DNA from: a virus
Lineage: Duplodnaviria; Caudoviricetes
Virus record (IMG/VR): IMGVR_UViG_3300008219_000008
Span: 1-58,183 of that record
Strand: one strand, 5' to 3'
Length of the DNA: 58,183 nucleotides
The notes beneath the pieces were generated by a model. That model did no database searches and was not told where the DNA came from. It saw only the letters and a list, made by a program, of their open reading frames with translations. Below, piece after piece: positions 1 to 18,460 of the stretch (its first letter is position 1; each line of letters begins with the position of its first letter). The position numbers were made by a program, and so were the translations under genes.

Positions 1-2
1 AA

Positions 3-1196
3 TAGAACAGGATAGATTTCCTCATTATCTTGACCCTCAAAGTAGAGATCTTCAAGAACCTGTGGAAGTATATATCTTGCCGCCTCCTTAGGGTCGTGGA
101 AGCGATTTTCATCGGTAATACCTTCCATGATAGCATACTGACCACCTGTGTACATGCAGACCATAAAAGCAGCTTTCGAAATAGCTATCAATAAAGATGA
201 TGGTACTGCAGCTAGCTTAAGCCACTTGCCATCTCCCCAAGATAGCTCTTTCATAGCATTACAGAAAGCTTTGTGAGCTGGTTCAAACTGTGGACTATTA
301 GTTGCTACTCTTTTGAATACTTCTCTGCAGCGTTGTAACCACAGTTGAATAGTATAACCAGAGCCAGACATATCTTTCCAGATACGGAATGGAGTGAACC
401 CAGTAGTATCTACCAAGTGGTAACTATAAATGTCACTTAACATAATCATAGCATCGCCTGGTTTCTTTCCGTTCTTAGCCATTTTTTGTAACCACTTAAC
501 AGGATCCGCTAAAGATTCAGCTCTAACAGATTTGTTTAAGCCTTGGTCAGTAAGGTGTGCCTGAAGTACGTGTTTGCCTAAACGTGTACATCTGCGATTA
601 ACGCCTGTTGCAATAGCTCGACAAGCCTTGTTATAAGGCAAGCATGAACCCTTACTATCGGGGTGTGTACGAGCAGCGTTCTCTATGGTAGTAGCAAAGA
701 TATGCCATTCGTTGAAACCTTGACGGTCCAATTCATCCATAGCACGACCAGGGAGAAACCTTTCTCCTGCTTTTACGCTCATAGTCTCACGGAACTCTTC
801 CGCAACACCACGAATAAACGGATCGTTAAAATGTGGTACATTAATTAACGACTGACAGCCATCCACTGCTAGCTGTGGTGGTTCTAATCCCCACCAGTGA
901 CTAACAGTTAATGCTGTTTCTGGATCATCTAATGATACGGGAGTATCGCTAGTTAATCCTGTACGTAGAACAACAGTGCCGTTTACAATACTATCAGCAT
1001 TAGCTATACCCGTATATTTAAGTATAGCATCATCTACTCCAGCTATTGTAACTGCTTTGTTTCCAGACGAAACACAGGTGTCGAACACAGTGTTTCTCAT
1101 TTGTTGGACTCGAGTCGCCGGGTCCTTGGTAAAGAACTGCCATTTAACTTTAAAGGCAGGACATACACGCGTGATGGCTTCTTTCAATGTAATCAT
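3..1196 (-). CDS. Early hypothetical protein, at least 398 aa, truncated at the left edge (missing from the ORF track)
   Basis: Manual translation from ATG at 1196 (MITLKEAITRVCPAFKVKWQFF...EEIYPVL) stays open to the window edge. RBS AAAGGAGA at 1203-1210. No family recognised. Confidence 0.85.
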   Translation of the reverse strand, partial: MITLKEAITRVCPAFKVKWQFFTKDPATRVQQMRNTVFDTCVSSGNKAVTIAGVDDAILKYTGIANADSIVNGTVVLRTGLTSDTPVSLDDPETALTVSHWWGLEPPQLAVDGCQSLINVPHFNDPFIRGVAEEFRETMSVKAGERFLPGRAMDELDRQGFNEWHIFATTIENAARTHPDSKGSCLPYNKACRAIATGVNRRCTRLGKHVLQAHLTDQGLNKSVRAESLADPVKWLQKMAKNGKKPGDAMIMLSDIYSYHLVDTTGFTPFRIWKDMSGSGYTIQLWLQRCREVFKRVATNSPQFEPAHKAFCNAMKELSWGDGKWLKLAAVPSSLLIAISKAAFMVCMYTGGQYAIMEGITDENRFHDPKEAARYILPQVLEDLYFEGQDNEEIYPVL

Positions 1197-1210
1197 TGGA
1201 AGTCTCCTTT

Positions 1211-1474
1211 CGGATTTGCCACAAGAAAATCTTAAGCACTCGAGCTGTTGAACATACAACAGGGCTTAAGAGTTAGTTTTTTTATGTGCGGGTGAACCAC
1301 ACAGTATACAGTCGGTTTAATACTCTTCCCCTTCTCTTCCATAAGAGTGGGTATGTTAAAGAAGTTCATCCATTGAACTTCATATCCATGCACTCCGAAG
1401 AATGCATGGGTATGAAGCCCCTACGTTGCAAGTAGGGACTGGGCGATTGAACGCCATTGTATAGGCTTACATGG
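1211..1474 (-). ncRNA. Structured intergenic RNA with several hairpins, including a C(UUCG)G-capped stem; possible processing or regulatory element
   Basis: Inverted repeats: 1230-1237/1264-1271 (inner 1245-1250/1257-1262), 1361-1381, 1386-1409 (UUCG loop on the minus strand), 1417-1424/1432-1439. Confidence 0.5.
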
Positions 1475-1735
1475 TCAGCCGTAGCACCAAAAGAAAGTGT
1501 TACCTTCCTTTTGCAACTCAACGAACCTAGTGAGTGGACCGAAAGAATCCTTTTCACCCATGTGCCATCCAATCACGGTGTAACCGAGATCTTCTAGCTG
1601 TGGGTTGAGGATGCTTACTTCGTCTCTTACATACTGTTTCCAGTCAAAAGAATCGAAGTCCAAATCTAGATCCGTGTCGCCTTGCAGCCACACTGGTTCC
1701 ATGTTAGCATATGGATATGGGTTTGACCAATTCAT
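1475..1735 (-). CDS. Early hypothetical protein (86 aa)
   Basis: ORF preceded by GAAAGG and co-oriented with its neighbours. Confidence 0.7.
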   Translation of the reverse strand: MNWSNPYPYANMEPVWLQGDTDLDLDFDSFDWKQYVRDEVSILNPQLEDLGYTVIGWHMGEKDSFGPLTRFVELQKEGNTFFWCYG

Positions 1736-1797
1736 ATGAGCCTTTCATTACGTTTCACACCTCGTCAGGCTTGATGGATAATACCATCACATATAAC

Positions 1798-2472
1798 TTA
1801 CACAGAACCAGGAGGAGAGTTGTTAAAGAAATCGATTTCATCCTGATTGGGATGCTCATCATCTGTCATATCTCCTTGACCATGATTGTTCATGTAGTCC
1901 TGAACCTCTTGGTCTATATCATCATCCTCGTGTATACGACGGAACGCCTCAGCTGCTATATCATCATCTGGCTTGTCATCTGGACTAAGACCCGCCTTAG
2001 ATAGATGTCGTGCAAGCATCTCATGAGTTTCATCACTGAACGAGAGTTCGAGTAAACGCCATTTTCGCTCAGTTTCTATGAGAGCCCGCTTGTCATCTGG
2101 ACTAAGATCCTCCTTAGGATCATAACCCGTAATCTTTGAAGCAGTGTTAGGACCAGCTCCGTACATCAATGCACGTTGATAGTCCTTCTTCATTTGAGCA
2201 GCATCCTTGCTATGCCACGAGTGCATAACATGTGGACAGTCAGCCTTGTTATCTGGCAGATCTGTAGATAGTACCACCAAGAGTAACCAGCCAATGATAC
2301 CAAGGATAGTAAGGGCGATACCAAGGGTAGCGACGATGGTGAATGGCACTGCAAGATCATCTAAAGGATCTGTTAAAGCAATAGTGTTGATAAATATTGC
2401 ACCAAGCACGGTAAGGAACGCCGAAGCGAACACACACAGTAGAGTGATGGTAAATGTTTTTGACATTTGCAT
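1798..2472 (-). CDS. Early membrane protein with two N-terminal TM helices and an acidic C-terminal tail
   Basis: Two hydrophobic segments and a D/E-rich C-terminus. RBS AAAGGAGG suggests the true start is the second Met (2466). Confidence 0.8.
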   Translation of the reverse strand: MQMSKTFTITLLCVFASAFLTVLGAIFINTIALTDPLDDLAVPFTIVATLGIALTILGIIGWLLLVVLSTDLPDNKADCPHVMHSWHSKDAAQMKKDYQRALMYGAGPNTASKITGYDPKEDLSPDDKRALIETERKWRLLELSFSDETHEMLARHLSKAGLSPDDKPDDDIAAEAFRRIHEDDDIDQEVQDYMNNHGQGDMTDDEHPNQDEIDFFNNSPPGSV

Positions 2473-2490
2473 CCTCCTTTCATAGGGTTG

Positions 2491-2560
2491 TTAGTCTGTC
2501 TCATCAGTGCAGTGTGACTAATCACTACAGACTCAACGGCTCACGCCGTTGAGTTTCGAC
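2491..2560 (-). ncRNA. Type II hammerhead self-cleaving ribozyme with a loop-I pseudoknot
   Basis: Minus strand reads GUC-GAAA-CUCAACGGC-GUGA-GCCGUUGAG-UC^UGUAGUG-AUUAGUCA-CACUGCA-CUGAUGA-GAC-A-GACUAA. Both core boxes are intact, stems I, II and III pair, the cleavage triplet is GUC, and loop-I UUAGUC pairs with the 3' GACUAA. Confidence 0.93.
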
Positions 2561-2806
2561 TTAGAATTTATTGCGGCACGAAAGATAGCCATCCTGATCA
2601 ACAGAGTAGACACAGTACAGTATGCCTTGCTTGTTGATTTCAGGATGGAAGCGACCAACCTCTGCGTATTCAAGAACACCTCGAGTAAGCACTGCAGCCT
2701 GTGCTTCTGCCATCGCTTCTGCAATGGTGTCGTATTGTTCTGTTTCTTCGCCGGTTGACTCTGGGTGAGTGTGCTCTGGACGCATAACTAGGGTAACGTA
2801 AAACAT
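2561..2806 (-). CDS. Early hypothetical protein (81 aa), probably the first gene after the genome end
   Basis: RBS AAAGGAGA 5 nt upstream of the ATG. Its stop codon abuts the hammerhead. Confidence 0.8.
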   Translation of the reverse strand: MFYVTLVMRPEHTHPESTGEETEQYDTIAEAMAEAQAAVLTRGVLEYAEVGRFHPEINKQGILYCVYSVDQDGYLSCRNKF

Positions 2807-2819
2807 GGTTATCTCCTTT

Positions 2820-2911
2820 CAAGAGATTAGGGGGGTGATCCTCAGATGAGGGGTAGGGGGGGTTTTGTCCGCCAACGGACCATTCTTACCCCTGTCCAAA
2901 TTCTCGACCCC
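2820..2911. other. Putative genome terminus or packaging junction with G/C homopolymer tracts and short hairpins
   Basis: G6, G4 and G7 runs (2830-2862), C4 runs, hairpins CCTC-AGAT-GAGG (2840-2851) and GTCCG-CCAA-CGGAC (2867-2880). Lies between the last late gene and the first early-type gene. Confidence 0.45.
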
Positions 2912-5900
2912 TTAGTCGATTATGTCCTCAAGAGCCTCTGGAATCTTACTGTATGGTGCTTGATCCTTCAGCTTAGCTATGGGATCTTTTGTTCTAACAA
3001 GTGTCTCTGGAGCTGACTCTGGAGCTTCAATGGGTTGCTGCTCTGGCTGTTCTCTTCTAACAGGTGCTCCCAGATCTCTGGAGAATTCTGAGACATGCTG
3101 TATACTTGGAAATAGTTCTTTACCACCCTGATGTATCATAGTTTCCCAGAAGTATCCAGATGTAGCGGTTGGTATTCCCTGATGGAATCCTTTGTTACTA
3201 GACATACTTGGTCTTCGTAAATCCATACGACTAGAGAACCAGTTTGCCACTGGCTGAGCTATATCTGGTGCCTCGACATGATCCATCATTAGATAAGCCA
3301 ATCCACGACCCCACGTCTCTCCCAGTATGGGTACATGCTTTGCTAGCGCCAGTAAGTCCTGACCGTATATTGTATTGTTTCCTCCGAAGGCTAAGCCACC
3401 CAAAGCTCCAATACCTTTGTATATATCTTTAGCTATGACCTCAGCTGCACTAGCAGCAATAAACATATTCTGTGAGTTTCCTTTGAATCCTTCGGCTGCT
3501 CTTAAGATACCTTGTGATGCCAGAGCTATTGTACGCCCCAATACAGGAAGCCGAACACCATAGTTAATCAAAGTATTCATTGGTCTTTCTTCCCACTCAT
3601 CTATAAGATCATCATATTTTTGTCCTGCTGATATCCTTAATAGCATCATGTATAACGTATCTAACAACAATAGACCGAAGAGATTAAAGGCATATTTCAT
3701 GGGATGAAATCCAGTACTCTTTCGCACTACGTGCTGAGATACAAACAACATAGGGTATCTTCTAAAGACTTCCCAGATTGCTTCAAAGGGTCCTTGTGAT
3801 GTTGAGCCATCTTCGTTTCTGTGACCTGTAGTTATATCAAAGGCATTAGGAGAAACCAAGACCTCTTCAATAAACATCTTTTCTGCTTGTCGCATAGATG
3901 TTATAATATCAAGCCCTTGTTTGTATGCTGAAGAGTCTGCTGTCCAGTCGTCCTGTCTATTTACATACTCCATTAACTTAGTTGTACTATAGTAATCTCT
4001 ACCCTCTTTATTGGAGATATCTAAGAACATTTCTACTGATGGACTTTTCATCCCTAACAGATTTGTCTTCTTAGATAGTAATCCACTATTCAGTACATAC
4101 TTAACTAAGTTTAAGTTGAACTTAGGTATCTTAGCTTTTCTCATGTGTCCTAATAGAATCCTATCATAGTTATGATCTTCAGGATCAAGCTCTGCGTCTT
4201 TCATTTCTTCCTGAAGAGAAACTAAATTATTCAGGTGATCGGATAAGAAGAACCTAAATGATATGGCACGACTACCAGCAATACCAGACATTACTTGCTT
4301 AGCTGGTATTAACATTTTATCTCCCCACTGCTTAAGTGCACCAGCCATAAATAACTCTTGAGCTGCGACGGCGGGTTGCTCATAGTCTGTATACCTACCG
4401 TGTGTAATATCTTTAATAGTGTGTGCTAAATCTCTAGCAAGAACTCTGCGTTCTTCTGTGCCCTTTATTAAGTTTCCTGACAGTGGGTGTAGTATAGAAT
4501 TAATAGCTCCTCTCAGATTTCTACGACCTATGCCTTCAGAGAACGAGCTCATCATACCCTCAACCAACATACTGGCAAAGGCTAAGTTAGTACCAAAGGC
4601 AATCTTAGCCAAGTGTGGAGATACTTGTACAGCCCAATCACCTATGATACTGGTTGCTTGACTTCTACGAACAATACCACGAACAACATCGTGCTTAGCT
4701 CTTAGATGCTCAGTACTTTTTACTATAGATTGTCTTTCCTTTTCACTCATTCTAGAACCATCAGCATGTCTATAACCCCCACCAATCGCATCGAAGGCTC
4801 TTTCTATTAGATTCAATAAGTCATTATAAGTACCTATGACACCAAACTCATTTAACATAAGTTCTTGTTCTAAGATAATATCACCTGTTGACTTCTTGTG
4901 CGTCTCGACAATAGTAACAGGATCAGTAACAATATGCTTCATAACTTCATCATTATGGACTAGATCACTGATCTTAGGTACAGCCCAAGATTCATTTGGG
5001 TGATATAGACCTTGAGATGCTTTGTGTAAAAAGTTAAAATAATGTAAATCCATAGCTGTCTCTAGGTTGTTTGATCCCTCTCTATTAAACTCAATCCTAC
5101 TACCCTTTTTAGGATTATAGAATATATGATATGGTACATCGAATCCTAAAGCATTCAAGCTTCGTATCCTAGCTGAGTTCTTTGTACCATTTTTGATTGC
5201 ATCAAAATACTCGGATCTTGTAGAGTCCTTCTCTGTTATTCCCAGTTCATCCCAAGTAAGTTTACCTAGAGCCATCTCTCTCATCATAGCCAATATACCC
5301 TTACGTAAGCTAGTGTGTGCCAGCTTAGCTTCCTTAGTATAGAACTCAGTAATGCCATCACTACGTGTATCTGTAGAATTTAGAGTATCTTTAAATATAT
5401 TTCTTTTCTCTTGCTTAGTTGTTTCAGACTCTTTATCATAGGAACTACTCTCTAAACTTAGAACCGTATCTATCAATTTTTGGTATATCTTTGGATCTGA
5501 GGACTCCAGTGCCAAGAACTCTGTTATTCTTTTTAACGTATCTGATAAATTGGGTATCTTACCTATGAAATATAAAGTAATTGGATCTATCTTCTCTTGT
5601 TCAGACATAAGTCTATGTGAAATAACGTTCTTCATATTTTCACTGAAGCTTTCTATAGAGTCTGTAGTTACATTCTCGTTTAACATATATGGAACAGCAG
5701 CCTTAAAGCCTTCTTTATACTGCCCCATCTCTACACCTAAGTGAATAAAGTAATCCAAAGACTTTCTAAAAGACTTAGCATACTGAATAATCTCTGCGTG
5801 TATCTCTTTAGTCTTTAACATAGGATCCATTAATGAGATATCATTTACATCGAAATCACCACCCATATCTGCTAACTTAAACACTTGAACATGTATAGCC

Positions 5901-8900
5901 TTCTCTGCTTCTTTACGCTGCTTCCTAGGAAGATTATCTAGAGATGCTACTAAGTTTTTGATATTAGCAGAGTGTACCATCAGGGTATCAGATTGTAGAT
6001 TAATTTTTTCTAGTGCTGCTGTAACAGAAGGAGCTCCCTCAAGATTATTAAAGTCTCCTGTGGTATGTACGACTCTGTTATCTAACAGTGCTGATGCCAT
6101 CATAATTAGTAGAACGTGGGAATTATACGTATAGTTAGCACCAGTAGCTCCTATAGTAGAGCTGACTAATCCTTGTCCTAATCTATTACCGCCCCCTTCC
6201 TTTTTTACCATTGATGATATCTTCTCTAGGAACTTCCTAGCACCCAGCCCAACCCCGCCAGTAACTGGCTGTCCGTATCTTGTCAATAGTTTACCCAGCA
6301 TAATTTCTACGGCAGCAGCAACCAATGTTCTATCTTGATATTCAGATTGCACAAGTCCGTGTATATCTAATTGGTCATTTGTATAGAAGCCATATTCTGT
6401 TAACGTATTCTTACCCTTATGGAAATCATACCTAGTAATACCACTGGTCATAACATGATCTTCAGCATGATTACCCGCTATCCTTAATCTATTATCTAAG
6501 TCCATAATCCTTTGATCAATTTCTTTCTTGCTATTTGTTCCAAAGAAATCCTTTACTCTTTTGGTGTGGTCAGCTAGTTCTGCATCCTTCATAATACTTG
6601 AGTCTTCCAGTACAAAGAATCTTTCACGTTGCTGTTTCAGCTTTATTAACTCGTTTATCTTTTCCATATAAACAGCATCATCTCTTAGCTCAACATCATC
6701 AATTTTCATCTCTCGTACTGGAGAAATAAGTTCCATACTCATCTCACTGATGTCTCCCCTGTTAACAATAGGAGCTCTTGAGTCTTTATATCTATTATCA
6801 TGCCCTAAGATTCTTTCGTTCATCTCAGTTACTTTTTTATATAATTTTGGATTACTTTCTTCAAACTGTGTAAAGACACTGTGTAGTCTAACAAAAGTAT
6901 TTCTTACATAAGACATAACTTTTTGCATTAAAGTCTGTGCTCTCAAACTTACATTTGTCTCTCCTTCAGTAAGATCTAAGTATGGACTGATTTCATTTAG
7001 TAGATGAAACTGAACCATACCCGCTATGAATTCCATGGGTTCACTATTAAGATGATTAAGATATTCTCTAGAAGCCACTGTCTCTCGACCACCAAACCAA
7101 GCTGTAACCATTTTCTTAAGATAAGACTTACCGTCTTTACTAGCCATAAGCGTTTGCCAATCTGTTGTCATCTGCCCATCTCTTAAGAATTTCATTGTAG
7201 CTATGTGAGCAAATTCGTGTGCCAGTGTAGCAATAATAACATCCGAAGATGCCTCTGTATCTTTTATCTTATTACCGATAGCCAGGATATAGGAGTCACC
7301 TTCTTTTCTAGCCGTCATAAACTTAGGTTTCTTGTTATCATATTCTAATTGAATGTCTTCAATACTTAGTTGATTATATGTATACATTCTTATTATAATC
7401 GCTCTAATAACTTTACCTGCTCCCTCGTTTAAGATACCTTCAGCACCCTCAGGATCTGTCAGTTTATTGATTTGGTCATTAAGGCGAACCAAGTGAGGAT
7501 TACCTTTAGTCATTGCTATAAACTCTTTAAATTTATTGCTAGTCTTAGAGTATTCACCTGCGTCAATCTTATTACCATCGGGTCCAAGAATAGTTGAGTC
7601 ATCAAACCACGCCATTGTATCCTCAGAATGTTCATTGATATCTGTGCCTACAGCTAAAGCAAGACCGATCTCAGCTAACATTCGTTGCTTGTCATCCAGT
7701 GTGTGTTTCTTCTCTATACTAGCTAAGAAATCAGGAACGGGATTCTTTGTACCTGGCTGTTGCCAGAGGAATTCCCTAGCATGGGCGTACCAAGGATTCA
7801 ACTGCCAGTCTCCCTTGGCATCGAATAGTATACTTAGTCTACGATATCTACCTTCTGCTATATCTCTTTCCTTTGTGACAAACGTTTCATGGAATGGTTC
7901 AATCATAATTTTATCTAAGTTATGAGCAACCTGAGGATCTCCTTCTGCGTCTATTCTATTTGCCAATAGTAATAATCTCGCTATCGTTCTAGAGTTATCT
8001 ACTGGATTCTCCTTTACTGCTTCTATATCTTTCCTAATTTCCTCAACAGTCTCTCTTAGTTCTTTCGATACATCTGTATCAAAGGCTGCTAAGCCCTCTA
8101 CATTGATTCTCTCAAGCATTCTTAAGACTGGTAAAAGGTGTACTTCTATTCCTGAGTAAGTAAATCCTTCTGCCCCTAGTCTGTATTGCTGTAAGTTCAA
8201 TACGTCTATTGGGGCTCCGTCTATGGAACCATATATATCTGCAGATTTGTTATATTTTTTAACAGCATTCTCTCTCATGATTGCTTCTAGGGCATCTGAT
8301 GTAATGACTTGATCTCTAGTTTCTCTGTGCATACTGAAACCAAGTGCTGAATCTAAAACTTCCTGAGGAGCTCTATCTAGAACCATATTATTATCTTCAT
8401 CAAAGGTAACACCTAAACTTTTCTTAAGGTGATAAGCAAGATTTACTCTTTGTAACGCTGGGTTATTAGAGTTCAATACAAATAACATCAAGGCAGAATC
8501 TATTGACAAAGCAAGCTTGACTTGTTTTCCTTTTATCTTTCGTCCTGCTACTGTTAGCATTCCAAACATTGTATTACGCAAGTTAAACTCTGTTGCCGTA
8601 GTTCTACCATGAACTTGTCTTACTGCTTTTATTTTATTCTGCATAGACATCGCAGCCTTATCTCGGATATTCTTTGGCTTAGTTGTCAAGTCCATCAAGT
8701 GAGGTATTAAGTCAAACTCTAAGTTTGTACCACCTTCTTCTTCTGCTTTATATAGAGCTGCGTCTACTAAGTATAGCTGTTCATCTTCAGTAAATAATCG
8801 CCATGACTCAGGATCTTTCCAATATTTTTTATCCTTATACATCTCAGCTTTCTTTGCTAGCTTATCTCGTTGATCTTTGGGAGCGTGTTCTATCCAAGTA

Positions 8901-11900
8901 CCATCCCTTAAAATCTCTCCAATATAGGATTGGAACAGTATAGACATGAGCAACTGGTTAAAGTCGTGTCCCTGAATAACCGATGAAATATAATGCAAGT
9001 CTTTGTATAAGATACTATCCTTAGGTACTTCTTTACCGTCTACAGAAAGTATTATATTCTCGGCAGCCAGTGGTCCCACTACTAACTGATCGTGTAAATT
9101 AGTTCTAGAGAATAAATGAGGTTTATTATTATATAGACCAGGAACAGATGTTAGAATCTCACTCATCTTCTTATCAGCAAAATCAGGATCAACAATAGCC
9201 ATTGGGAATCCTTCAGACTCTAGCTTCAGTGGATCAACCTCAGTCTCTGTTATAGTTCTCGAAAGGTCACTGATCTTATGATAGCCATCGATCCATCTCA
9301 TTCTATATATCTCTAATTCTTGAGGAGACAATTCTTTATCAAAGCTTTTCTTTTCTCTAGTAACTATTGCTTGTCTAAGTTTATCAGCCATCATTAAATG
9401 GTAGAAGTATGGCAAAGCCTCTGGTCTCTTATTTATAGCATCTACTAAACCTATAGGTTCAGCCCAAGCGAGCATCTCTCTCCGTATGGATACAGCCCTT
9501 CGTCCAACTTCTCCAGTATCGGCTAACAATCTATTTTCTTCTATAGAGAAAGGAAGAGGGTTTGGTAAGTTATCAACTTTCCACGGTATAGGCCAACCTA
9601 AGAATGAGTCTGGCATCATAGCTTCTGCATCAGTAGCTGGCTCAATAGCCATTAGATCTTGGTACTCTCCTATTGCATCTTTGATTTCTTTTTTAATAGA
9701 AAGTCGTTGCAATCGAATAACGCCTTTTCGATAATACGAGTGTTGTTTATACGGAGCCTGTAATGCTAATGGACCTCTTGGGTGCTCATTAGCGGTTAGT
9801 ATATGACCATCCTTAGCTACTCTATGATAATCAATTTCACTGGGTGAGTATTGTAATAAAGGAGACATGGTTTTACTAGCAACTTCCTTACTGAAGACAC
9901 CACCAAGAACAGCTTGTCGTAAGTTCAATAGACCTACTAGATTGTTATTCGCAAAGAATTTCTCTTCTAGTGCTATCTGACTTTCAACAATTTCTGGTCT
10001 GGTTCGGGAATCGGTATCCCAGTCTTTGTAGAAGGATTGGATTAAGTCTATATCATTGTCTTCTGCTCTATAATCTGCAAAGGGTGGTGGAGCAAACTCA
10101 GCATACTGCATTAATTCGTGTTGTGTCAAGACCTGTTCCAAGTGTTCATCAAAGTTTGTTACGGAATCATAAGGATTATTCTCTAGATCCAACATACCAA
10201 ATGAATCTCTATTATCCTTATCTTCTGTGTACTGTAAGAATATTTCTTGTCTTTCTTCTAGAGTAACCTTAGATACATCACCACCATACTTATTATCAGC
10301 TATGGTTTGCATATCTTCTTCAAGTTTATTAACCCACTTATCTGGTTCTACTGCTACTCTTTCTAACCACATACCCTGTTCATTCATACCACGACCAGCA
10401 GTATCTCTAAAGGATCGTGTAGATCCTGATGACGGTAGTGCTGTAGTATATATTAAGTAATCCTTAATACCAGCCCAGTCACCTTCATCCCACATCTCCT
10501 CAAGACCTAGTAGAGTCATAAGATCACCCATACGCTTAACATTAAATTTCTTTGCACTAGCGTTGTGTATGTTCAGTGCTCTAAAGTATCCCATAGAACG
10601 ATAAAGCTGTCTTCCTTTTTCTCTTCCTTCCTTAGTATCTATATCAACACCCATCATTATCATTTTCAGGGTTTCCCATTCTGGAGTATTTGGGATAATC
10701 CTATCCCATCCCTTTGCTTCTAAGGTATCATTTATGAATTTAGTAGCTCTATCTATTCTTGGCTGATACTTCTTCTTAGTACGCTTAATAGAATCTGGTG
10801 TTGGCTGCTTGGTATTAGGATCTATACCATAATCTTTCTGTGCCAGTCTTTGTATAATACCTTCCATTTGTTTTTCTAAAGACTCTAGACGATATAACGG
10901 ATTATCATCGCCTATAGTAGGATTGTCATACACCATCTCTAGTGTATCTTTCCACTGCTGTGTAGTCATATCATTGGAGTTCATCTCCAGAAGCTCTAGA
11001 ACCTTTCCATATAATGCTGGACTTAATCCTAGTGCTACTTCAATAACAGACGAAACTTGTCCATGTGACTTTTTAACTATTGCTCGTCCATAGTTATTTA
11101 TTTCATCTTCTGTAAACTTTACACCTTCGTCTTTGAATGCTCTCTCTATTCCAATGATTGCTATTATACCGTCTGGCATATTGGCAGTTACACCTGTTCG
11201 TGCTTGTGCTAATATCTTTGTATTAAAGTCTTGTTGGAATGCACCAAAGCCGCCTTGATAAACCTTACGCATAGTTGGAATCTTAAATAATTCTCTCAAT
11301 GCTTTTAGTTGTTTAACTCTTTTAGAATCTCCCGAAGTTTCTGCTGCCTCTACTTCTGCATTCCATTCTGAGATTGATTTAATGTGTTTAATCCCCTCGA
11401 ATACATGTAGGAATGTATTGACTCCAGCAACATTTTCATCAAATAAATGATTCTTTGATCCGATACCCCCAGCAATATAAAAATCTTCCTTGTTATTTTT
11501 AAAGTGTGCCTCGATAATTCCTTCTACTGCGTTACCATCTTCATCAATGAAACCATTTTCAATTTGGTCTATCAACTTAGGAACCCTAGTGTCTCTAGCC
11601 AAAGATAATAATTTAAGTCCAACTAAAGCATTAAAGTTTCTATCGTCTCTAGAAGATTTGGAAAACATAACATCAACAGCATCCTTTCCATACTCCTCTT
11701 CCCAAGATTTAATTACTCGATGTGATTGTTTAACCAAAGAACGAGTTAGTCCACTAAAGTTAACAGGAGCCGTAGCTTCAATTGCTAGTATCATTCCTAT
11801 TTGATTAAACGGAACAATCATCTTAGAGCCAGCAGTAAGCTGTGAAAGCCATGTTGCCTGTCCCATAGATGTACCATCTGCAAAGTTAATTATAGTATTG

Positions 11901-14900
11901 TTTTTGTATATAATAGCATCGTGTATAGCAGATGTACCTATGTGAGGCAATCCCAAGAACATCTCTGCTAAGAAATCTTTTAGTTCACTACGCTTTATAA
12001 CCCTATCATTTACACTTGATCCTACTACTTTAGGCATCAAAGTTACAGGATAGTCAATACCAGTTCTATCAACATTGGGATCGTGTAATATTTCCTCTCG
12101 CCACTTTTCAATTGCTTTCTTCTCAGCTTTTGTAAACTTCTTCTTGGCTAATATAGCATCTACCCGCTTCTGAGTTTTATAGTGAGACAACAGTCTCGCC
12201 ATAACTACAGGAGATAGCGGAGCAACTTCGTTTATCTGATTAATACCTGGAGCTAATTGAATCAAAGATTCTCCAGATACCTTTTCTACAATGTCACCAG
12301 TATAAAAACCTTTATCTGGATGTAGCCCAAGATGATTACGCATAGGCATATGTTTTGTTACATCTAATGCATCTACCAAAGCCTTTCCTAGAGATGAAGC
12401 TGGTTGCCTAGTAATTTCTCCATTACCAAGTCGTTCAATAGTTGTGTCTACTAAATTTCCTGTATCGTATAGTTCTCTAGTACGTTCTATTATAATCTTG
12501 GATAAGTTTTCTTTTAGATATGCTGCCTTATCTTCATCTAACATATTCTTAAAGTCCTTATCAAATATATCAGGATAGTGTTTCTCTAATCCCTTTATAA
12601 AAACACGAGCTTCTATTTCATTTGATAAGACAACTTCAACTTGTCCATTGATAGCCAAGGCTACCGATGTTTCGAATGTAGCTAAACTAGTGGTTTTTTC
12701 TCCCACACGTCCTGTTTCTGTTACTACATCTAATATATAACCACCATCATTTTTATCTAAGAATGCCTCACGAGCTACTAAAGCATCAGCTATCTCTAAT
12801 TGTTCTAGTAATTTCTCTGCATGAATTAAGTGTATAACAGAATCTGGTTTATCTGTTTCGAGCAAAGAGTTTAATCTAGCTTCTAGACCTGTTCTAAGCA
12901 TAGCGGATGACCAGCTATCATTTCTAGATGATATTCTAACAGCCCACCTACGCATTATAGCTAAGGCACCATACTCTCCTTTCATCCTGTATTCTATAGA
13001 ACCAGCATGTCTCTGTAGAGTAACGGCATCACTGTCTTTATTTACAATGCCATTATCTATAATAGCTTCTTTGAATATATCCCAAGGGGTAAACAACCTG
13101 TCCTTCATATACTTTGGCATAATACCGTAAATGGCTGCGTTGTATATACCACCATTAGGTCCATATGCTTTTTCTATTGATTGTATCTGCTCTAGTTGGG
13201 ACAATAGTTCTACATATGCTATTGCTTCTTCTGTAATTTCTCTACCCAATTCTTTTATAGAGTCTATGGGCAGCGTTAATAACTCTTCTTCATTCAAGTC
13301 TGTAAACATATACTCAGTATGATCAGTATTGATTAAAGACGTACCCTTAAGATTATTTAGATTTCTAGGTAATTTTGGCATATACCTAAAAGAACCAGGT
13401 TCTAAAGTCTTTAGAGAAGCTCTTGCTTCTTCTTGCGAAGACTCAAACAATGCTCTTGCCTGTGGAACAGTTATCTCTGAGCCATAACTTATGTCAATAC
13501 TCTCATCATTCATTTGTTGTATCAGGTTCTGTTCAACGCTGGTGTTCGAAGATAAGTAACCAAAGAAATCACCGTAGACTATGTTTACATCTGCTTCTTC
13601 TTGACCTTCTTTTACAAAGCCTTCTACTAAGACTTCTCCTGTATCTTCATCTATAGTTCCCGTCATTAGTTCTTCAAAACTTTGTCTATCCTGTCTAAGC
13701 TTTTCTCTTAACTCTGACTTCATTTTAGATACTTCTCGCCAAGCACTTAAGGTTACGTATACACCCTTACCTTCCTTATATTCTTTTACAAGCTGTTTAT
13801 TATTTTCAGTAAGAGCCTCGCCCACCTTGTCCAATCTTTCAGATTTAGCTTCCTGGTATACCTTGTATGAATCACTTTCTTTCACATTAACAATGGAGTC
13901 ATTATGTATTTCTTGTAAATACCTATATAGGTGGTTAATTCTTTTCGTGTTCCAACCTGAATCACTACCATCTAATAGACCCTTAAGTTTAGTACGCCAC
14001 GTCTTTCCTCTTTTTGTATTTGGAATCACCTCTATTATAGCATTTAAATGTTCTGCCCCATCCTCGTCGATATCTGTATTATCAAAATGTTTTCTTTCAT
14101 CACTCTTAGACGCTAGAGCAGCTACGGCAAGTATACCATATATACCCGCCATATCGGAGTTGACTATTCGAAAATCTTTTTTAAATTCTTCGTCCAAAGC
14201 TCTGGCTAATTCTATTTCCTTTTTCTTAAGCTCTCTTATTTCAGAATTAAGTATAACGATCTTTGATATATCAACACCAGAATCCTCAGCCCACTCAGCT
14301 AAGATATCATTACTTATATCTATATCATTATTTAAATCTAATATCATATCATTTAGGATATCAATTTCTTTGTCGTACTCTTCAGAAGTCATATCAGTTG
14401 GCTTAGACTTTAATAAATTATTTTTCCTATCTTCTAGTTTTGTTATTGTTTCCTCAGCTTCTTTTACATTATCCACTGTGTCAATAAGATCATTGGGTTT
14501 TTTAGTTTCCTCTTTTAAACCAGCTTCTACGACTTTAGGAACCTCTGCTGTTGCATCTTCTAAAGAAACCATTTGTTCGCTTGATAAAACAGCATATGTA
14601 ATAGCATCACCTTCTTTGTGAACTACACTATCGTAACCATGTTTTTTCAGTATCTTAACAAATTCATCTACGCCTAGTTCTTTGGTAAGTACATCGTTCT
14701 GTCCAAGCAGAGCGTTTATCCACACATAGCTTCTTTCTTGCCCTTCAACTCCCTCTAAGTAAGGTCTTAGATCAGCTCTTAAGCCCTCAGGAAGAGCAGC
14801 AAGAAGATCCTCTGCCGTATATTCCTCATCAAACTCCGTTCGCTTTTTAAGTATTATATTCCATGTGGATAGGTCGGTTAAATCCAAGGGATTATTCATA

Positions 14901-17900
14901 ATCAAGTGTGTTTCGATTACTTCTAATGGTTTGTCTTCTACCTTAAATGTTCGAGCGTGTTCTTCGCTATCGGTAAGCCATATGTATTTCTGACCCTTTG
15001 CTTCGGCAGCTACTACAGTTTTTCCTCCCCTATAAAATACTTTAGGCTGCCCTTTATCATCTTTAAAAAGAGGTGTTGTTGTGGTTTCCGGGGCAGCAGT
15101 CTTCCTAGGTTTATCTACCTCACTCTTTGCAACTAACTGCTCTGGTGAAACAACGTAAACAGTTTCTCCTAATGCTTCATCAACATGTGTAATCTCCTGT
15201 GTCGAGCCAACATCTTCGATATTCTCAAATATTATTACATTCTCAAATTTTGAGGTATCCTCACCGTTACGCTTAGCTTCCGTATGCCATGAAGAGAGCG
15301 CAGATGTCAGTATATCTAGAGTCATACCAGAATTTTGTCTAGTTAAAGGGTGCTTAGAGTCTCCACCCCGACCCGCACCGCTTTTTAGCATCCAATCTAT
15401 AAATGCTTTAGGCAGTACGTTTAATAAAGTAGGTGTAGAAATCCTTGCTTCAAAACTTGCACCTTTAACGTCTATTATAATAGGATTCCCTTGTGCTATT
15501 GCAGTAACCTGCTCGGGATCATATTTTAGCGGTACACCTTTTTGACCTTGATAGCTTCTAGCATGAGCTTCGGTAGGCGTAAGGAATACTCCTGAGCGTT
15601 GTCCCATAGTTCTGTCTGAATCAGCCCAATCAACAGGTTTCCTTACGTCATGTTCACTGACATACTCCCGTAGATTGAACAGTGCTTCGGCTTCCGCATG
15701 TGTTGCTTTCTCCCTTGCTTTAAATAGCTCACTATTTTTCTTATCCTTACCTAGATCATGTTGGCTTCGACCTTTTTTGAGTTGTTCATTATAGTATTTT
15801 TCCTGCTCTTCTTTTGCTATGTCTGCTAACTCTCTCGCGTCCTCATGATCTTTATTTGCCTTCTGGTAACCCTCATCAGTTTCTGGATCCCACGTATCTA
15901 GATCTCTCTCTCGCACCTGAGATGTATAGAGAATCTTAGTATTACCCTCTTCGTCAGTAATAAGGTTATTGTTTTCATCTAGTTGTACTTCGTTTCCAAG
16001 TACATTTTTTACACTCCCTGGTGTAGCCTCTGCAGTAAATTCTTTTGGAATTAGAGTATCTTCCTTCTTAATAACATCAGCTTCTGTCTCAACCTTTGCT
16101 TTTTCTCCTGTTAATCTATTATTAAACTCAACACCAGACACAGATAAATCATGAGCAGACTGCAACCATGTAAGGATAGGTACTTCAGTAATAACCGCCT
16201 TGGGATTTATATTCTGTTGTATGTAGTTGTTAAAATCAGAAAGTGACATATTACCTTGAGATACACTTTCAGCCTGGGTTCGCAACATCTGCGCTTGTAA
16301 GTCTGTTATGAGTCCTTGCTTCAGAGCATTATCTATATTTTTAAGTAACACTACTGGAGAAGCATTCTTCGGATCTTCTACCCTATTTTTTAGCTTAAGC
16401 TGTTCTTTATATAAATCCGTTTTTACTTCTGCTTCTACTCCTAAGTGTTCTTTAGCTTTATTAGTTGCTTCTTTAAGATTACTACCAGATGTTCTTAATT
16501 TATGGGCTAACTTCCCTCTAGCTTCTTGAGCTTTTTTAATTATCTCGTCTTGTACTTTAATAGCAGCGTCTAGCTTTTCTTCATTACTAGCTTCTTCCCA
16601 AGAAGTACCACCCTCTTCTGTTCTTGCGTCCCACTCCGCCTCTAACCGCTTCTTTAATTGTGGATCAACAAGATCAAAGAAGTTGTTATCTTCTAATAAG
16701 ACCTTATCTTGGTATTCTTGTATTGACAGACCAAGCTCTGAAGCTCTTTCTGCTATACGTGCTTGTATGGCTAAATAGGCTGTGGTATCAGAGAAAGATT
16801 CTTCAGCCTTTTCAACTAGCCCAAATTTCTGGGCTAAGTTCTCGAAGAGTTTTGTGTATAAGGCTGGTAGACTTATTGTCTTTTCCCCACTACCACCTTT
16901 AATATAAACTGTGGGGTCTATATTTTCTACAGCCTTAGTAAGTTCTAGTATTAATTCATGTTCGGATAAGTTGGTATTGGTTAGTACTGTATTCAATAGT
17001 ATTCCTACTGACTCATCTCCAAAGATATTATCATTTTGAAAAGCTAATCCTGTCTTTTCTGTAACTAATCCTCTTAGATTAACTGTAGCTGTTAAGCTTT
17101 CCATAGTAGCATCAATATCATACCTTCCACTGAATGCACCTTGGATCATATTATAAAGTTCTTTACCCGCCATCTTCTGACCAACTCCACCAAGGCTACC
17201 ATATAAAGCCTGTGAGCCTACTGTGTGTGGTATCATCATAATACCAGCCATAACTGGGTTAATGAATGGTGAGAACGCAGCTTCCCATTTTGCTTCAGTT
17301 AAGATATGATCCCAGCTTACTTCTTCTTGTACTCCTGTACTTGTTCTATGATACTGATTCATAATTTCAGCTAAACCACCACTAATAAATCCTTCTACTA
17401 CGTTACCCGTAGTATATGTACCAACCTTACCTAAAGTAATTCCTTTTTGTGCAGCTACTTTCTTGAATATAGTTTTGTTAAGTATGGTGGGTCCAATATT
17501 TTCCGGTAGATAGTAAATTAAAGACTTAGCACCCTGTTGCCACTTAGCTAAATGACCAATAGTACTTAATCTCTTCAGTGCTTGTACTTTATCAGTAGCT
17601 TTTTTAGCAGTCTTACCTATAAATATAGCTCCACCCAAGGCTCCTGCACCCAAAGCTGCTAAAGCAGCCGATAAACCTAAACTTGCTACCATATCTGGAT
17701 CATTTAGAATACCACTAACTACAAAGTTTTTACTTTTTGTCCATATTTGGTCAAGACCACTATCATATCTATTATGCATCTCTACGGAATGGGCAATAGC
17801 TCTATTTGTTACAGCAAGATTTAGTTTATACCAAAATTCTATTGAGTTTCTAGAACCTTCGACTGCTTCCTCTATATATTTTGCCCCACCCAAAGCACTG

Positions 17901-18460
17901 ATATACTTTCCATACAACACTTGGTCCATTGCTAATACTTCTAAAGCTTCTTCTGTATTCCAATTATCTTGCTTAAGGCTAAACATCTCTTCAGGAGTAT
18001 CATAAGCATACTCTACACCTGGTGCTGCTCTCCAGCTGGTTAAGCCAGATACTAAGTTCCATTTACTTAGTTTGCCCCAATCTCTTAACTTCTGTTCATT
18101 TGATTCTGATATACCTAAAACAGAATCCTCATCATATTTTCTAAGATCACGTCCACCCATGATATGCCTAGAGACTTCAACATCATTAGCAACATTTCTA
18201 CTCCAGATACCCCTATCATAACTCAGTTGCATTGACTTCTCGAATGCTAGGTTCTTCTCCATTACACCAGTTACCCATGTATTAGATTCAATGTCTAGGT
18301 ATGTTTCAGCATTGTCAAAGTCCTCCTCTCTATTTAAAGAAAGTGGGTTATCCTTAACAGCAGACCACGATTTCTCTCGCATTGCTGCTGTATATTCCAT
18401 TATATCTAGATCGGTTACATCTAGCGTAATGGGTCTTGTTTGCCACAGTGGGTCAGCCAT
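2912..18460 (-). CDS. Giant (5182 aa) polyvalent internal virion/ejection protein: two ART-like domains, an N4-vRNAP-like RNA polymerase domain and a zincin motif
   Basis: Last gene of the internal-virion cluster; RBS AAGGAG. Motifs: GVFLTPTEAHARSY; FYRGG..YIWLTDSEEHARTF..NNPLDL..GYDSV; DRTGIDYP; DDRNFNA; EDFY; RELFKIPTMRKVYQG; NIHNAS; GIKDYL; LAHEFAH..EFIA. Confidence 0.85.
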   Translation of the reverse strand: MADPLWQTRPITLDVTDLDIMEYTAAMREKSWSAVKDNPLSLNREEDFDNAETYLDIESNTWVTGVMEKNLAFEKSMQLSYDRGIWSRNVANDVEVSRHIMGGRDLRKYDEDSVLGISESNEQKLRDWGKLSKWNLVSGLTSWRAAPGVEYAYDTPEEMFSLKQDNWNTEEALEVLAMDQVLYGKYISALGGAKYIEEAVEGSRNSIEFWYKLNLAVTNRAIAHSVEMHNRYDSGLDQIWTKSKNFVVSGILNDPDMVASLGLSAALAALGAGALGGAIFIGKTAKKATDKVQALKRLSTIGHLAKWQQGAKSLIYYLPENIGPTILNKTIFKKVAAQKGITLGKVGTYTTGNVVEGFISGGLAEIMNQYHRTSTGVQEEVSWDHILTEAKWEAAFSPFINPVMAGIMMIPHTVGSQALYGSLGGVGQKMAGKELYNMIQGAFSGRYDIDATMESLTATVNLRGLVTEKTGLAFQNDNIFGDESVGILLNTVLTNTNLSEHELILELTKAVENIDPTVYIKGGSGEKTISLPALYTKLFENLAQKFGLVEKAEESFSDTTAYLAIQARIAERASELGLSIQEYQDKVLLEDNNFFDLVDPQLKKRLEAEWDARTEEGGTSWEEASNEEKLDAAIKVQDEIIKKAQEARGKLAHKLRTSGSNLKEATNKAKEHLGVEAEVKTDLYKEQLKLKNRVEDPKNASPVVLLKNIDNALKQGLITDLQAQMLRTQAESVSQGNMSLSDFNNYIQQNINPKAVITEVPILTWLQSAHDLSVSGVEFNNRLTGEKAKVETEADVIKKEDTLIPKEFTAEATPGSVKNVLGNEVQLDENNNLITDEEGNTKILYTSQVRERDLDTWDPETDEGYQKANKDHEDARELADIAKEEQEKYYNEQLKKGRSQHDLGKDKKNSELFKAREKATHAEAEALFNLREYVSEHDVRKPVDWADSDRTMGQRSGVFLTPTEAHARSYQGQKGVPLKYDPEQVTAIAQGNPIIIDVKGASFEARISTPTLLNVLPKAFIDWMLKSGAGRGGDSKHPLTRQNSGMTLDILTSALSSWHTEAKRNGEDTSKFENVIIFENIEDVGSTQEITHVDEALGETVYVVSPEQLVAKSEVDKPRKTAAPETTTTPLFKDDKGQPKVFYRGGKTVVAAEAKGQKYIWLTDSEEHARTFKVEDKPLEVIETHLIMNNPLDLTDLSTWNIILKKRTEFDEEYTAEDLLAALPEGLRADLRPYLEGVEGQERSYVWINALLGQNDVLTKELGVDEFVKILKKHGYDSVVHKEGDAITYAVLSSEQMVSLEDATAEVPKVVEAGLKEETKKPNDLIDTVDNVKEAEETITKLEDRKNNLLKSKPTDMTSEEYDKEIDILNDMILDLNNDIDISNDILAEWAEDSGVDISKIVILNSEIRELKKKEIELARALDEEFKKDFRIVNSDMAGIYGILAVAALASKSDERKHFDNTDIDEDGAEHLNAIIEVIPNTKRGKTWRTKLKGLLDGSDSGWNTKRINHLYRYLQEIHNDSIVNVKESDSYKVYQEAKSERLDKVGEALTENNKQLVKEYKEGKGVYVTLSAWREVSKMKSELREKLRQDRQSFEELMTGTIDEDTGEVLVEGFVKEGQEEADVNIVYGDFFGYLSSNTSVEQNLIQQMNDESIDISYGSEITVPQARALFESSQEEARASLKTLEPGSFRYMPKLPRNLNNLKGTSLINTDHTEYMFTDLNEEELLTLPIDSIKELGREITEEAIAYVELLSQLEQIQSIEKAYGPNGGIYNAAIYGIMPKYMKDRLFTPWDIFKEAIIDNGIVNKDSDAVTLQRHAGSIEYRMKGEYGALAIMRRWAVRISSRNDSWSSAMLRTGLEARLNSLLETDKPDSVIHLIHAEKLLEQLEIADALVAREAFLDKNDGGYILDVVTETGRVGEKTTSLATFETSVALAINGQVEVVLSNEIEARVFIKGLEKHYPDIFDKDFKNMLDEDKAAYLKENLSKIIIERTRELYDTGNLVDTTIERLGNGEITRQPASSLGKALVDALDVTKHMPMRNHLGLHPDKGFYTGDIVEKVSGESLIQLAPGINQINEVAPLSPVVMARLLSHYKTQKRVDAILAKKKFTKAEKKAIEKWREEILHDPNVDRTGIDYPVTLMPKVVGSSVNDRVIKRSELKDFLAEMFLGLPHIGTSAIHDAIIYKNNTIINFADGTSMGQATWLSQLTAGSKMIVPFNQIGMILAIEATAPVNFSGLTRSLVKQSHRVIKSWEEEYGKDAVDVMFSKSSRDDRNFNALVGLKLLSLARDTRVPKLIDQIENGFIDEDGNAVEGIIEAHFKNNKEDFYIAGGIGSKNHLFDENVAGVNTFLHVFEGIKHIKSISEWNAEVEAAETSGDSKRVKQLKALRELFKIPTMRKVYQGGFGAFQQDFNTKILAQARTGVTANMPDGIIAIIGIERAFKDEGVKFTEDEINNYGRAIVKKSHGQVSSVIEVALGLSPALYGKVLELLEMNSNDMTTQQWKDTLEMVYDNPTIGDDNPLYRLESLEKQMEGIIQRLAQKDYGIDPNTKQPTPDSIKRTKKKYQPRIDRATKFINDTLEAKGWDRIIPNTPEWETLKMIMMGVDIDTKEGREKGRQLYRSMGYFRALNIHNASAKKFNVKRMGDLMTLLGLEEMWDEGDWAGIKDYLIYTTALPSSGSTRSFRDTAGRGMNEQGMWLERVAVEPDKWVNKLEEDMQTIADNKYGGDVSKVTLEERQEIFLQYTEDKDNRDSFGMLDLENNPYDSVTNFDEHLEQVLTQHELMQYAEFAPPPFADYRAEDNDIDLIQSFYKDWDTDSRTRPEIVESQIALEEKFFANNNLVGLLNLRQAVLGGVFSKEVASKTMSPLLQYSPSEIDYHRVAKDGHILTANEHPRGPLALQAPYKQHSYYRKGVIRLQRLSIKKEIKDAIGEYQDLMAIEPATDAEAMMPDSFLGWPIPWKVDNLPNPLPFSIEENRLLADTGEVGRRAVSIRREMLAWAEPIGLVDAINKRPEALPYFYHLMMADKLRQAIVTREKKSFDKELSPQELEIYRMRWIDGYHKISDLSRTITETEVDPLKLESEGFPMAIVDPDFADKKMSEILTSVPGLYNNKPHLFSRTNLHDQLVVGPLAAENIILSVDGKEVPKDSILYKDLHYISSVIQGHDFNQLLMSILFQSYIGEILRDGTWIEHAPKDQRDKLAKKAEMYKDKKYWKDPESWRLFTEDEQLYLVDAALYKAEEEGGTNLEFDLIPHLMDLTTKPKNIRDKAAMSMQNKIKAVRQVHGRTTATEFNLRNTMFGMLTVAGRKIKGKQVKLALSIDSALMLFVLNSNNPALQRVNLAYHLKKSLGVTFDEDNNMVLDRAPQEVLDSALGFSMHRETRDQVITSDALEAIMRENAVKKYNKSADIYGSIDGAPIDVLNLQQYRLGAEGFTYSGIEVHLLPVLRMLERINVEGLAAFDTDVSKELRETVEEIRKDIEAVKENPVDNSRTIARLLLLANRIDAEGDPQVAHNLDKIMIEPFHETFVTKERDIAEGRYRRLSILFDAKGDWQLNPWYAHAREFLWQQPGTKNPVPDFLASIEKKHTLDDKQRMLAEIGLALAVGTDINEHSEDTMAWFDDSTILGPDGNKIDAGEYSKTSNKFKEFIAMTKGNPHLVRLNDQINKLTDPEGAEGILNEGAGKVIRAIIIRMYTYNQLSIEDIQLEYDNKKPKFMTARKEGDSYILAIGNKIKDTEASSDVIIATLAHEFAHIATMKFLRDGQMTTDWQTLMASKDGKSYLKKMVTAWFGGRETVASREYLNHLNSEPMEFIAGMVQFHLLNEISPYLDLTEGETNVSLRAQTLMQKVMSYVRNTFVRLHSVFTQFEESNPKLYKKVTEMNERILGHDNRYKDSRAPIVNRGDISEMSMELISPVREMKIDDVELRDDAVYMEKINELIKLKQQRERFFVLEDSSIMKDAELADHTKRVKDFFGTNSKKEIDQRIMDLDNRLRIAGNHAEDHVMTSGITRYDFHKGKNTLTEYGFYTNDQLDIHGLVQSEYQDRTLVAAAVEIMLGKLLTRYGQPVTGGVGLGARKFLEKISSMVKKEGGGNRLGQGLVSSTIGATGANYTYNSHVLLIMMASALLDNRVVHTTGDFNNLEGAPSVTAALEKINLQSDTLMVHSANIKNLVASLDNLPRKQRKEAEKAIHVQVFKLADMGGDFDVNDISLMDPMLKTKEIHAEIIQYAKSFRKSLDYFIHLGVEMGQYKEGFKAAVPYMLNENVTTDSIESFSENMKNVISHRLMSEQEKIDPITLYFIGKIPNLSDTLKRITEFLALESSDPKIYQKLIDTVLSLESSSYDKESETTKQEKRNIFKDTLNSTDTRSDGITEFYTKEAKLAHTSLRKGILAMMREMALGKLTWDELGITEKDSTRSEYFDAIKNGTKNSARIRSLNALGFDVPYHIFYNPKKGSRIEFNREGSNNLETAMDLHYFNFLHKASQGLYHPNESWAVPKISDLVHNDEVMKHIVTDPVTIVETHKKSTGDIILEQELMLNEFGVIGTYNDLLNLIERAFDAIGGGYRHADGSRMSEKERQSIVKSTEHLRAKHDVVRGIVRRSQATSIIGDWAVQVSPHLAKIAFGTNLAFASMLVEGMMSSFSEGIGRRNLRGAINSILHPLSGNLIKGTEERRVLARDLAHTIKDITHGRYTDYEQPAVAAQELFMAGALKQWGDKMLIPAKQVMSGIAGSRAISFRFFLSDHLNNLVSLQEEMKDAELDPEDHNYDRILLGHMRKAKIPKFNLNLVKYVLNSGLLSKKTNLLGMKSPSVEMFLDISNKEGRDYYSTTKLMEYVNRQDDWTADSSAYKQGLDIITSMRQAEKMFIEEVLVSPNAFDITTGHRNEDGSTSQGPFEAIWEVFRRYPMLFVSQHVVRKSTGFHPMKYAFNLFGLLLLDTLYMMLLRISAGQKYDDLIDEWEERPMNTLINYGVRLPVLGRTIALASQGILRAAEGFKGNSQNMFIAASAAEVIAKDIYKGIGALGGLAFGGNNTIYGQDLLALAKHVPILGETWGRGLAYLMMDHVEAPDIAQPVANWFSSRMDLRRPSMSSNKGFHQGIPTATSGYFWETMIHQGGKELFPSIQHVSEFSRDLGAPVRREQPEQQPIEAPESAPETLVRTKDPIAKLKDQAPYSKIPEALEDIID

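Follow-up and report, generated by a model that had tools for sequence, protein, structure and literature searches.

What does a small self-cleaving RNA do when it lies between the stop codon of one phage gene and the ribosome-binding site (RBS) of the next? The locus that raises this question sits in the window, by which we mean the whole 58,183-nt stretch of DNA analysed: an entire IMG/VR virus record, linear and 87% complete according to CheckV. Hammerhead ribozymes have been known in phages since 2011 (Perreault et al. 2011, PMC3088659), and that survey, in its account of type II hammerheads with the kind of pseudoknot seen here, reports cleavage in vitro: nearly all members that fit the consensus cleaved themselves, and the pseudoknot was required for speed at low Mg2+. 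It also finds type II hammerheads flanking prophage genes, and its authors propose the processing of long phage transcripts (PMC3088659). An earlier note on the present DNA, made from its letters, had likewise placed pseudoknotted type II hammerheads in phage and prophage operons. A later review, where it treats hammerheads, repeats the transcript-processing idea and calls their function unresolved (PMC6765202).

DNA of the host phage is present in 20 marine or seawater DNA runs from 19 studies; of the 21 runs listed in all, none is recorded as RNA. By terminase, its nearest isolated relatives are marine and other T7-like podoviruses at less than 41% identity; among isolated phages, megablast with positions 1-8000 of the window found no match, nor did blastn with the 75-nt element at E<=1. 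The minus strand, which is that of the ribozyme, carries every long annotatable ORF, and the listed plus-strand ORFs fall inside these. Gene order is T7-like, running from an RNA polymerase gene (56861-54417) through ribonucleotide reductase, portal, scaffold, capsid, tail tubes A and B and tailspike to the large terminase (27678-25990). Unlike in T7, some 24 kb then follow, in which the ribozyme is preceded by three small ORFs and then by ORFs of 1787, 5182 and 81 aa, and followed by a 222-aa ORF, further small ORFs and, at 3-1259, one that runs off the record (Table 1). From the terminase gene down to the ribozyme the distance is 23.4 kb, and a second, compact RNA polymerase gene comes 1.2 kb after the ribozyme.

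Several features of this stretch deserve mention in their own right. The 5182-aa and 1787-aa ORFs together make up 36% of the record; the internal core proteins of T7 are missing between tail tube B and tailspike, and the two large ORFs may, we infer, encode ejected virion proteins that replace them. For the 222-aa ORF there are two candidate starts, 2472 and the better-spaced, preferred 2466, 24 nt after the ribozyme tail. Single-protein searches of viral contigs with the 222-aa and 81-aa ORFs returned no relatives. Inside the 222-aa ORF (1971-2117, minus strand), a 30-nt repeat recurs 117 nt apart with 93% identity, and contigs from runs X17 and X18 swap about 91-97 nt of this ORF for other letters, a length variation between strains. 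On the other side, the 105-nt spacer that follows the giant gene (2807-2922) has C-runs on the minus strand, and metagenomic contigs often break or diverge there, with loose ends at 2847, 2850, 2882, 2921 and 2922.

Table 1. The ribozyme, its parts and the surrounding genes, in window coordinates unless a record is named.
Feature	Position	Strand	Basis or remark
Type II hammerhead ribozyme, whole Rfam match	2490..2561	-	RF02276 score 43.0 bits (cut-off 37); R1, our own model, 87.1 bits
Stem II 5' strand GUC, pairing with GAC 2498-2500	2558..2560	-	Sequence
Core GAAA; A2554-U2531 pair (15.1-16.1) added to stem III	2554..2557	-	Invariant in 4/4
Stem III hairpin, 9 bp, GUGA loop	2532..2553	-	Sequence and fold
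Predicted cleavage site, 3' of C2530 (C17), between 2530 and 2529	2529..2530	-	Alignment to hammerhead consensus
Stem I, 7 bp, U2527.G2510 wobble; 8-nt loop I 2515-2522	2508..2529	-	Sequence and four-copy alignment
Core CUGAUGA	2501..2507	-	CUGAUGA or CUGACGA in relatives; consensus position 7 free
Pseudoknot 3' strand GACUAA, pairing with loop I UUAGUC 2516-2521	2491..2496	-	6 pairs
Upstream 81-aa ORF; stop UAA 2563-2561 adjoins ribozyme 5' end	2561..2806	-	No PHROG or Pfam match
Downstream 222-aa ORF; RBS AAAGGAGG 2473-2480	1798..2466	-	Two predicted membrane helices, acidic tail; no PHROG or Pfam match
5182-aa ORF	2912..18460	-	ART-PolyVal PF18760, 32.1 bits, in N-terminal half; no PHROG match; about 25% identical homologues in relatives
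1787-aa ORF	18475-23838	-	No family match in Pfam or PHROGs
Second single-subunit RNA-polymerase-like gene, N-terminal 419 aa, cut by record end	3..1259	-	Profiles and predicted fold
Second polymerase gene in relatives	L087:17570-19378; L086:14447-16294; L088:11493-13376 (-); L144:9606-11489		

The anatomy follows the rules of the family. Read along the minus strand, the elements come in the order stem II 5' strand, stem III, stem I, stem II 3' strand, which leaves stems I and III capped and stem II open, the type II topology; the earlier note had claimed a complete ribozyme of this type, and every element is indeed present where it had been placed. Stem III pairs CUCAACGGC (2553-2545) with GCCGUUGAG (2540-2532) around its GUGA loop (2544-2541), and stem I pairs UGUAGUG (2529-2523) with CACUGCA (2514-2508), one pair being G.U. 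The family core of CUGANGA, GAAA and U-H before the cut reads CUGAUGA, GAAA and U2531-C2530. As described for the family, canonical pairs next to the core are required and most members have a pseudoknot of at least 4 pairs (PMC3088659); the window copy has the core-adjacent pairs G2500-C2558 (10.1-11.1), U2529-A2508 (1.1-2.1) and A2554-U2531 (15.1-16.1), and 6 pairs between loop I and the tail. This last helix had also been proposed from the letters, and it holds: UUAGUC (2521-2516) is complementary to GACUAA (2496-2491), and three of the six pairs covary across four sequences. The same goes for the placement between a stop codon (2563-2561) and the next RBS (AAAGGAGG, 2480-2473), with a 10-nt gap after the tail.

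Searching with Rfam hammerhead models, the check that the note had suggested, gave a clear match, provided that the search was sensitive. Scanning 301 nt against Rfam returned Hammerhead_II (RF02276) at 43.0 bits, above the gathering score of 37 bits, with E 9e-8 over model positions 1-66, and a genome search with RF02276 gave the same 43.0 bits at E 4.1e-9. By contrast, cmscan of the whole 58-kb window did not report a hammerhead, either at the gathering threshold or at E<=1, a silence that comes from speed filters and not from absence; unlike it, the 301-nt scan and an 8.4-kb scan both detect such hammerheads. With default Rfam filters dropping a 43-bit match in a 58-kb scan, phage annotation pipelines probably under-report ribozymes of this kind. 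No further copy turned up in the window: our own model, run with filters off, recovers only the one at 2490-2561.

Folding tells the same story in part. Stems I and III both appear in the minimum-free-energy fold, whose -27.7 kcal/mol (z -4.16) was equalled or bettered by 0 of 200 shuffles; the fold closes the junction with a competing 4-bp AGUC/GACU pairing instead of stem II, because the program is blind to pseudoknots and cannot model them.

Relatives were found to carry the element as well. A terminase search of viral contigs yielded 87 related stretches, 80 of which were kept, and the loci of the 50 longest records were scanned with RF02276. Among these 50 of the 80 terminase-related records, three exceeded the cut-off—G013 at 51.5, G007 at 43.1 and G006 at 39.0 bits. 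In all three the hammerhead comes 21-26 kb after the terminase, which agrees with its placement in the window. R1, a model that we made from the four copies, recovered those three sites and, apart from weak matches, nothing further in the same 50 records. Some weak matches were not counted: an Rfam match in G048 (20.7 bits), which is below the cut-off, at another site and apparently missing GAAA, and two further R1 matches elsewhere (14.1 and 10.8 bits). L144, more distantly related but identical in layout, adds a fifth carrier.

Aligned, the four copies have 96.2% of cells in the modelled pairs paired, against at most 48% when partners are slid. Compensatory changes fall in 9 of 20 pairs, which 0 of 500 shuffles reach, and they are spread over one of the three stem II pairs, three of four at the base of stem III, two of seven in stem I and three of six in the pseudoknot. 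For instance, the middle pair of stem II is U-A in two copies and C-G in the other two. Stem III keeps its pairing with entirely different sequence and length, and its inner hairpin forms in each record despite this complete divergence. On the evidence of its letters, then, the element is a real, well-conserved type II hammerhead with predicted self-cutting activity. That it might be a chance match or an inactive relic is scarcely credible, for while the whole-window Rfam scans are silent, the sensitive scans give E values of 9e-8 and 4.1e-9, the core is intact, and covariation and conservation persist in relatives whose flanking genes have diverged beyond recognition.

The surroundings of the four copies follow a common order: giant gene, small ORF whose stop abuts or just precedes the ribozyme, ribozyme, RBS with a small ORF, and an ORF of about 600 aa. 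The giant proteins are only about 25% identical between records and the small flanking ORFs have no detectable homology; the RNA is therefore better conserved than its neighbours. Presence is patchy nonetheless. The gene for the ~600-aa protein occurs in 9 of 19 records searched, four with the ribozyme (the window, G006, G007 and G013) and five without (G008, G009, G010, G012 and G046), and these five retain the order of giant gene, small ORFs and 600-aa gene. In the intergenic stretches of the five, Rfam matched nothing at E<=1, although the positive control included in that scan was detected. With five of nine records of the same layout lacking it, the ribozyme is dispensable at the syntenic site; it is present in two of the ten records that are at least 90% complete. 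Two relatives, L082 and L084, have a short G+C-rich hairpin between ribozyme tail and RBS, which the window and L083 lack.

A wider subfamily was gathered from viral contigs with a 17-nt degenerate word from the conserved 3' half, which matched at least 118 stretches, and 80 loci were examined. At E<=0.01 our own model matched 127 times, spread over 71 of 81 sources, and 10 of the 80 loci had no match; removing 9 duplicate rows from the 127 left 118 distinct sequences. It was the shared word, part of which falls in the tail, that selected every locus, and the figures that follow describe that subfamily and, throughout, the matches listed. In an alignment fitted to the model, 97.0% of cells in the modelled pairs are paired in the 118, with compensatory changes in 14 of 14, against at most 51.3% with partners slid. 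The loop I/tail helix has at least 4 pairs in 116 of 118 (40% with shuffled tails) and at least 5 in 89 of 118 (12% with shuffled tails). Position is just as regular. A co-oriented frame of at least 40 codons stops within -5..+12 of the 5' end in 81 of 118, as against 11.3% of 5900 random same-strand placements, and within -60..+12 in 100 of 118; downstream, a Shine-Dalgarno sequence and start follow within 120 nt of the 3' end, at a median of 15 nt, in 105 of 118, compared with 36.1% of random placements. At least two hammerheads occur in 27 of 71 sources, and arrays were seen among the matches listed: nine copies in about 10 kb in L158, six in each of L100 and L162, and five in L143.

What, then, would such an RNA do at this position? 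We consider it probable that the type II hammerhead is functional and that, in this marine T7-like phage, it splits a polycistronic mRNA of the minus strand co-transcriptionally. The motif, its conservation and covariation and its placement are observed; cleavage in vivo, with its consequences for expression, is what we infer. Since all the sequence and structure rules of the family hold for the window copy and almost every consensus member cleaved in the survey's assays (PMC3088659), co-transcriptional cleavage after C2530 is to be expected. Stems III and I would fold during transcription, the 3-bp stem II would close, and the 6-bp pseudoknot between loop I and the tail would hold stems I and II side by side, whereupon the RNA would cut itself after C2530. 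The upstream product would carry the giant gene and the 81-aa ORF and have the stem III hairpin, closed off by a 2',3'-cyclic phosphate, as its 3' terminus; the upstream stop lies 31 nt before the cut, so ribosomes could still terminate normally. The downstream product would start with a 5'-OH and would keep the pseudoknot, because both of its strands lie within the 3' product, so that stem I and pseudoknot would stand at the extreme 5' end, 10 nt before the RBS of the gene for the putative 222-aa membrane protein. In effect, stability and translation of the downstream cassette would be uncoupled from the upstream message.

One consequence that might be imagined finds no support. Predicted RBS accessibilities for precursor and 3' product are 0.34/0.33, 0.52/0.61, 0.47/0.61 and 0.21/0.20; they are near-equal before and after the cut, and cleavage is therefore not predicted to unmask the RBS.

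Known systems help to place this reading. T7 RNase III sites are long imperfect double-stranded hairpins cut by host RNase III, and the earlier note had drawn the comparison. As a functional analogy it stands, the proposed effect being alike in both: the polycistronic message is divided from one cistron to the next, and the upstream fragment finishes in a stable 3'-terminal hairpin. Structural kinship does not stand, for the window RNA is a three-way junction with a hammerhead core, would cut itself with no host enzyme and would leave 2',3'-cyclic phosphate and 5'-OH ends, and the two have no relation in sequence or structure. On the same ground—a three-way junction with a hammerhead core in place of a long hairpin—we rejected the locus as a T7-type RNase III processing site. 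RiboJ is an engineered insulator in which a hammerhead just upstream of the RBS strips away upstream context. The hairpin between ribozyme and RBS in L082 and L084 is as in the RiboJ design; the window ribozyme differs from RiboJ in being natural, of type II and placed between cistrons rather than after a promoter.

The closest likeness is of course to the type II hammerheads of RF02276 themselves, with which the window copy shares the core, an open and short stem II, the pseudoknot, an intergenic position among co-oriented phage genes and the score (PMC3088659). It differs from other members in its host, an uncultured marine T7-like phage with its own RNA polymerase, and in being a single copy in the window rather than one of a cluster. 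Another parallel comes from the haloviruses HF1 and HF2, where the same source describes a hammerhead with a start codon 13 nt further on and a transcript 5' end mapped at most 3 nt from the cut (PMC3088659). Alike are the viral encoding and the nearness of a start codon downstream, at 13 nt in the haloviruses and, for start 2466 in the window, 24 nt after the tail; different are the core, which is a variant with insertions in the halovirus ribozyme and standard in the window copy, and the setting, a high-salt archaeal virus (PMC3088659). Intercistronic cleavage with a 5'-OH on the downstream message, which the earlier note had put forward for an early mRNA, is the best reading and one already published for phage hammerheads (PMC3088659); the word 'early' is not supported, as discussed below.

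The tight junction with the upstream stop codon invites a different reading, namely that of a conditional or translation-coupled switch whose cleavage rate, and with it downstream expression, is set by translation of the upstream ORF, by ions or by temperature. A ribosome terminating at the abutting stop would cover stem II, GAAA and part of stem III, and the stop falls within -5..+12 in 81 of the 118 distinct subfamily members among the matches listed, against 11.3% at random. The window copy also has the competing AGUC/GACU pairing, and salt-tuned regulation has been proposed for the halovirus hammerheads (PMC3088659). However, tight packing is usual in phage genomes and accounts for the abutment without any coupling, and a ligand-binding or switch domain is absent. 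We rate such a switch as very unlikely.

A more durable rival takes the ribozyme to be mainly a portable cassette boundary or recombination joint, its cleavage either giving context-independent expression or being incidental. Metagenomic DNA contigs of other marine samples bring this reading to mind. One 235-nt contig from run X18 matches the window over precisely 2491-2563, with 2 differences, and both of its flanks are unlike the window, although they too read stop codon, ribozyme, AAGGAGG; one of the two puts a C at 2527 on the RNA strand and thereby makes a C-G pair of the stem I wobble. Two contigs from run X13 diverge from the window exactly at 2491. A contig from run X1 joins 1789 to 2888; both small ORFs (81 and 222 aa) are skipped, and the ribozyme with them. 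From the breakpoints in these X18, X13 and X1 contigs it follows that the ribozyme lies at the edges of a variable cassette region.

The shared stretch with foreign flanks, the departures at 2491 and the 1789-2888 join all favour a boundary, as do the unrelated flanking ORFs among ribozyme-bearing records, the patchy presence in four of nine syntenic records, and the multiple copies in 27 of 71 sources, up to nine in one 10-kb locus among the matches listed. Against it, metagenome contigs can be chimeric, and the compensatory changes in every helix and in the pseudoknot show that the RNA fold is under selection, and not a DNA joint only. The boundary reading is moreover compatible with a processing role rather than an alternative to it, and as the main function we judge it unlikely.

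Both aspects could be united, and we offer this tentatively, as a doubtful possibility. The ribozyme may act as a mobile 'cut-and-insulate' module at the borders of small-gene cassettes that are exchanged in a hypervariable slot between the giant gene and the second polymerase. Its DNA would serve as the recombination joint, its RNA would give each cassette its own 5' end and translation context, and cleavage would perhaps be gated by the terminating ribosome.

We return to processing, our preferred reading, and to the message on which it would act. The earlier note had spoken of two early genes and an early mRNA, and this part is not supported: the ribozyme lies 23.4 kb past the terminase, after the 1787-aa, 5182-aa and 81-aa ORFs and near the second polymerase, with no promoter or terminator found nearby. 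A promoter and terminator scan of window positions 1-4000 found nothing adjoining the ribozyme and fewer sites than in shuffles. Direct repeats included no repeated phage-promoter word, and no repeated promoter 11-mer (at most 1 mismatch, in at least 4 of 15 intergenic regions) was found. In the relatives the map runs from the giant gene to the ribozyme, then over 1-1.5 kb to the ~600-aa polymerase-like gene and over 7-9 kb to the T7-like polymerase; the relatives' records do not all end at the same place. What follows the ribozyme could be the start of an early region or the end of a late one.

The polymerase-like neighbour is of interest in itself. It is a protein of about 600 aa, additional to the 814-aa T7-like polymerase (56861-54417), with weak PHROG matches to single-subunit RNA polymerases, and a profile search gathered 113 representative relatives. 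Across 72 aligned sequences R196, D295 and D551 never vary and S299, K366 and Y374 hardly do; Pfam RNA_pol (PF00940) is matched by 25 of the 72 members, with a best E of 6.3e-37. AlphaFold, given this alignment, returned a model with pLDDT 95.2 and pTM 0.93 (an earlier fold from four sequences, at pLDDT 32, was unusable), and in a Foldseek search this model comes closest to the RNA polymerases of T7 and of mitochondria (E about 1e-12, probability 1.00, query TM 0.55-0.60). BLASTP of the second polymerase against the window's T7-like one was not significant, and hhalign aligned only 65 C-terminal columns at E 0.052. A profile search of the PDB with the second polymerase gave no match. From the Pfam matches, motif residues and predicted fold, two T7-type polymerases seem to be encoded in this clade.

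The element itself is no new kind of RNA; it is an ordinary further example of the phage hammerheads. It matters because the role of bacterial and phage hammerheads is still called unresolved in the review's discussion of them (PMC6765202). This clade provides a natural comparison, with five carriers at one syntenic slot—four of the nine records of shared layout, and L144—set against five close relatives without the ribozyme. Likewise, the positional rule of stop codon, ribozyme, about 15 nt and start codon, drawn from 118 distinct viral copies among the matches listed, could guide reporter experiments on both cistrons.
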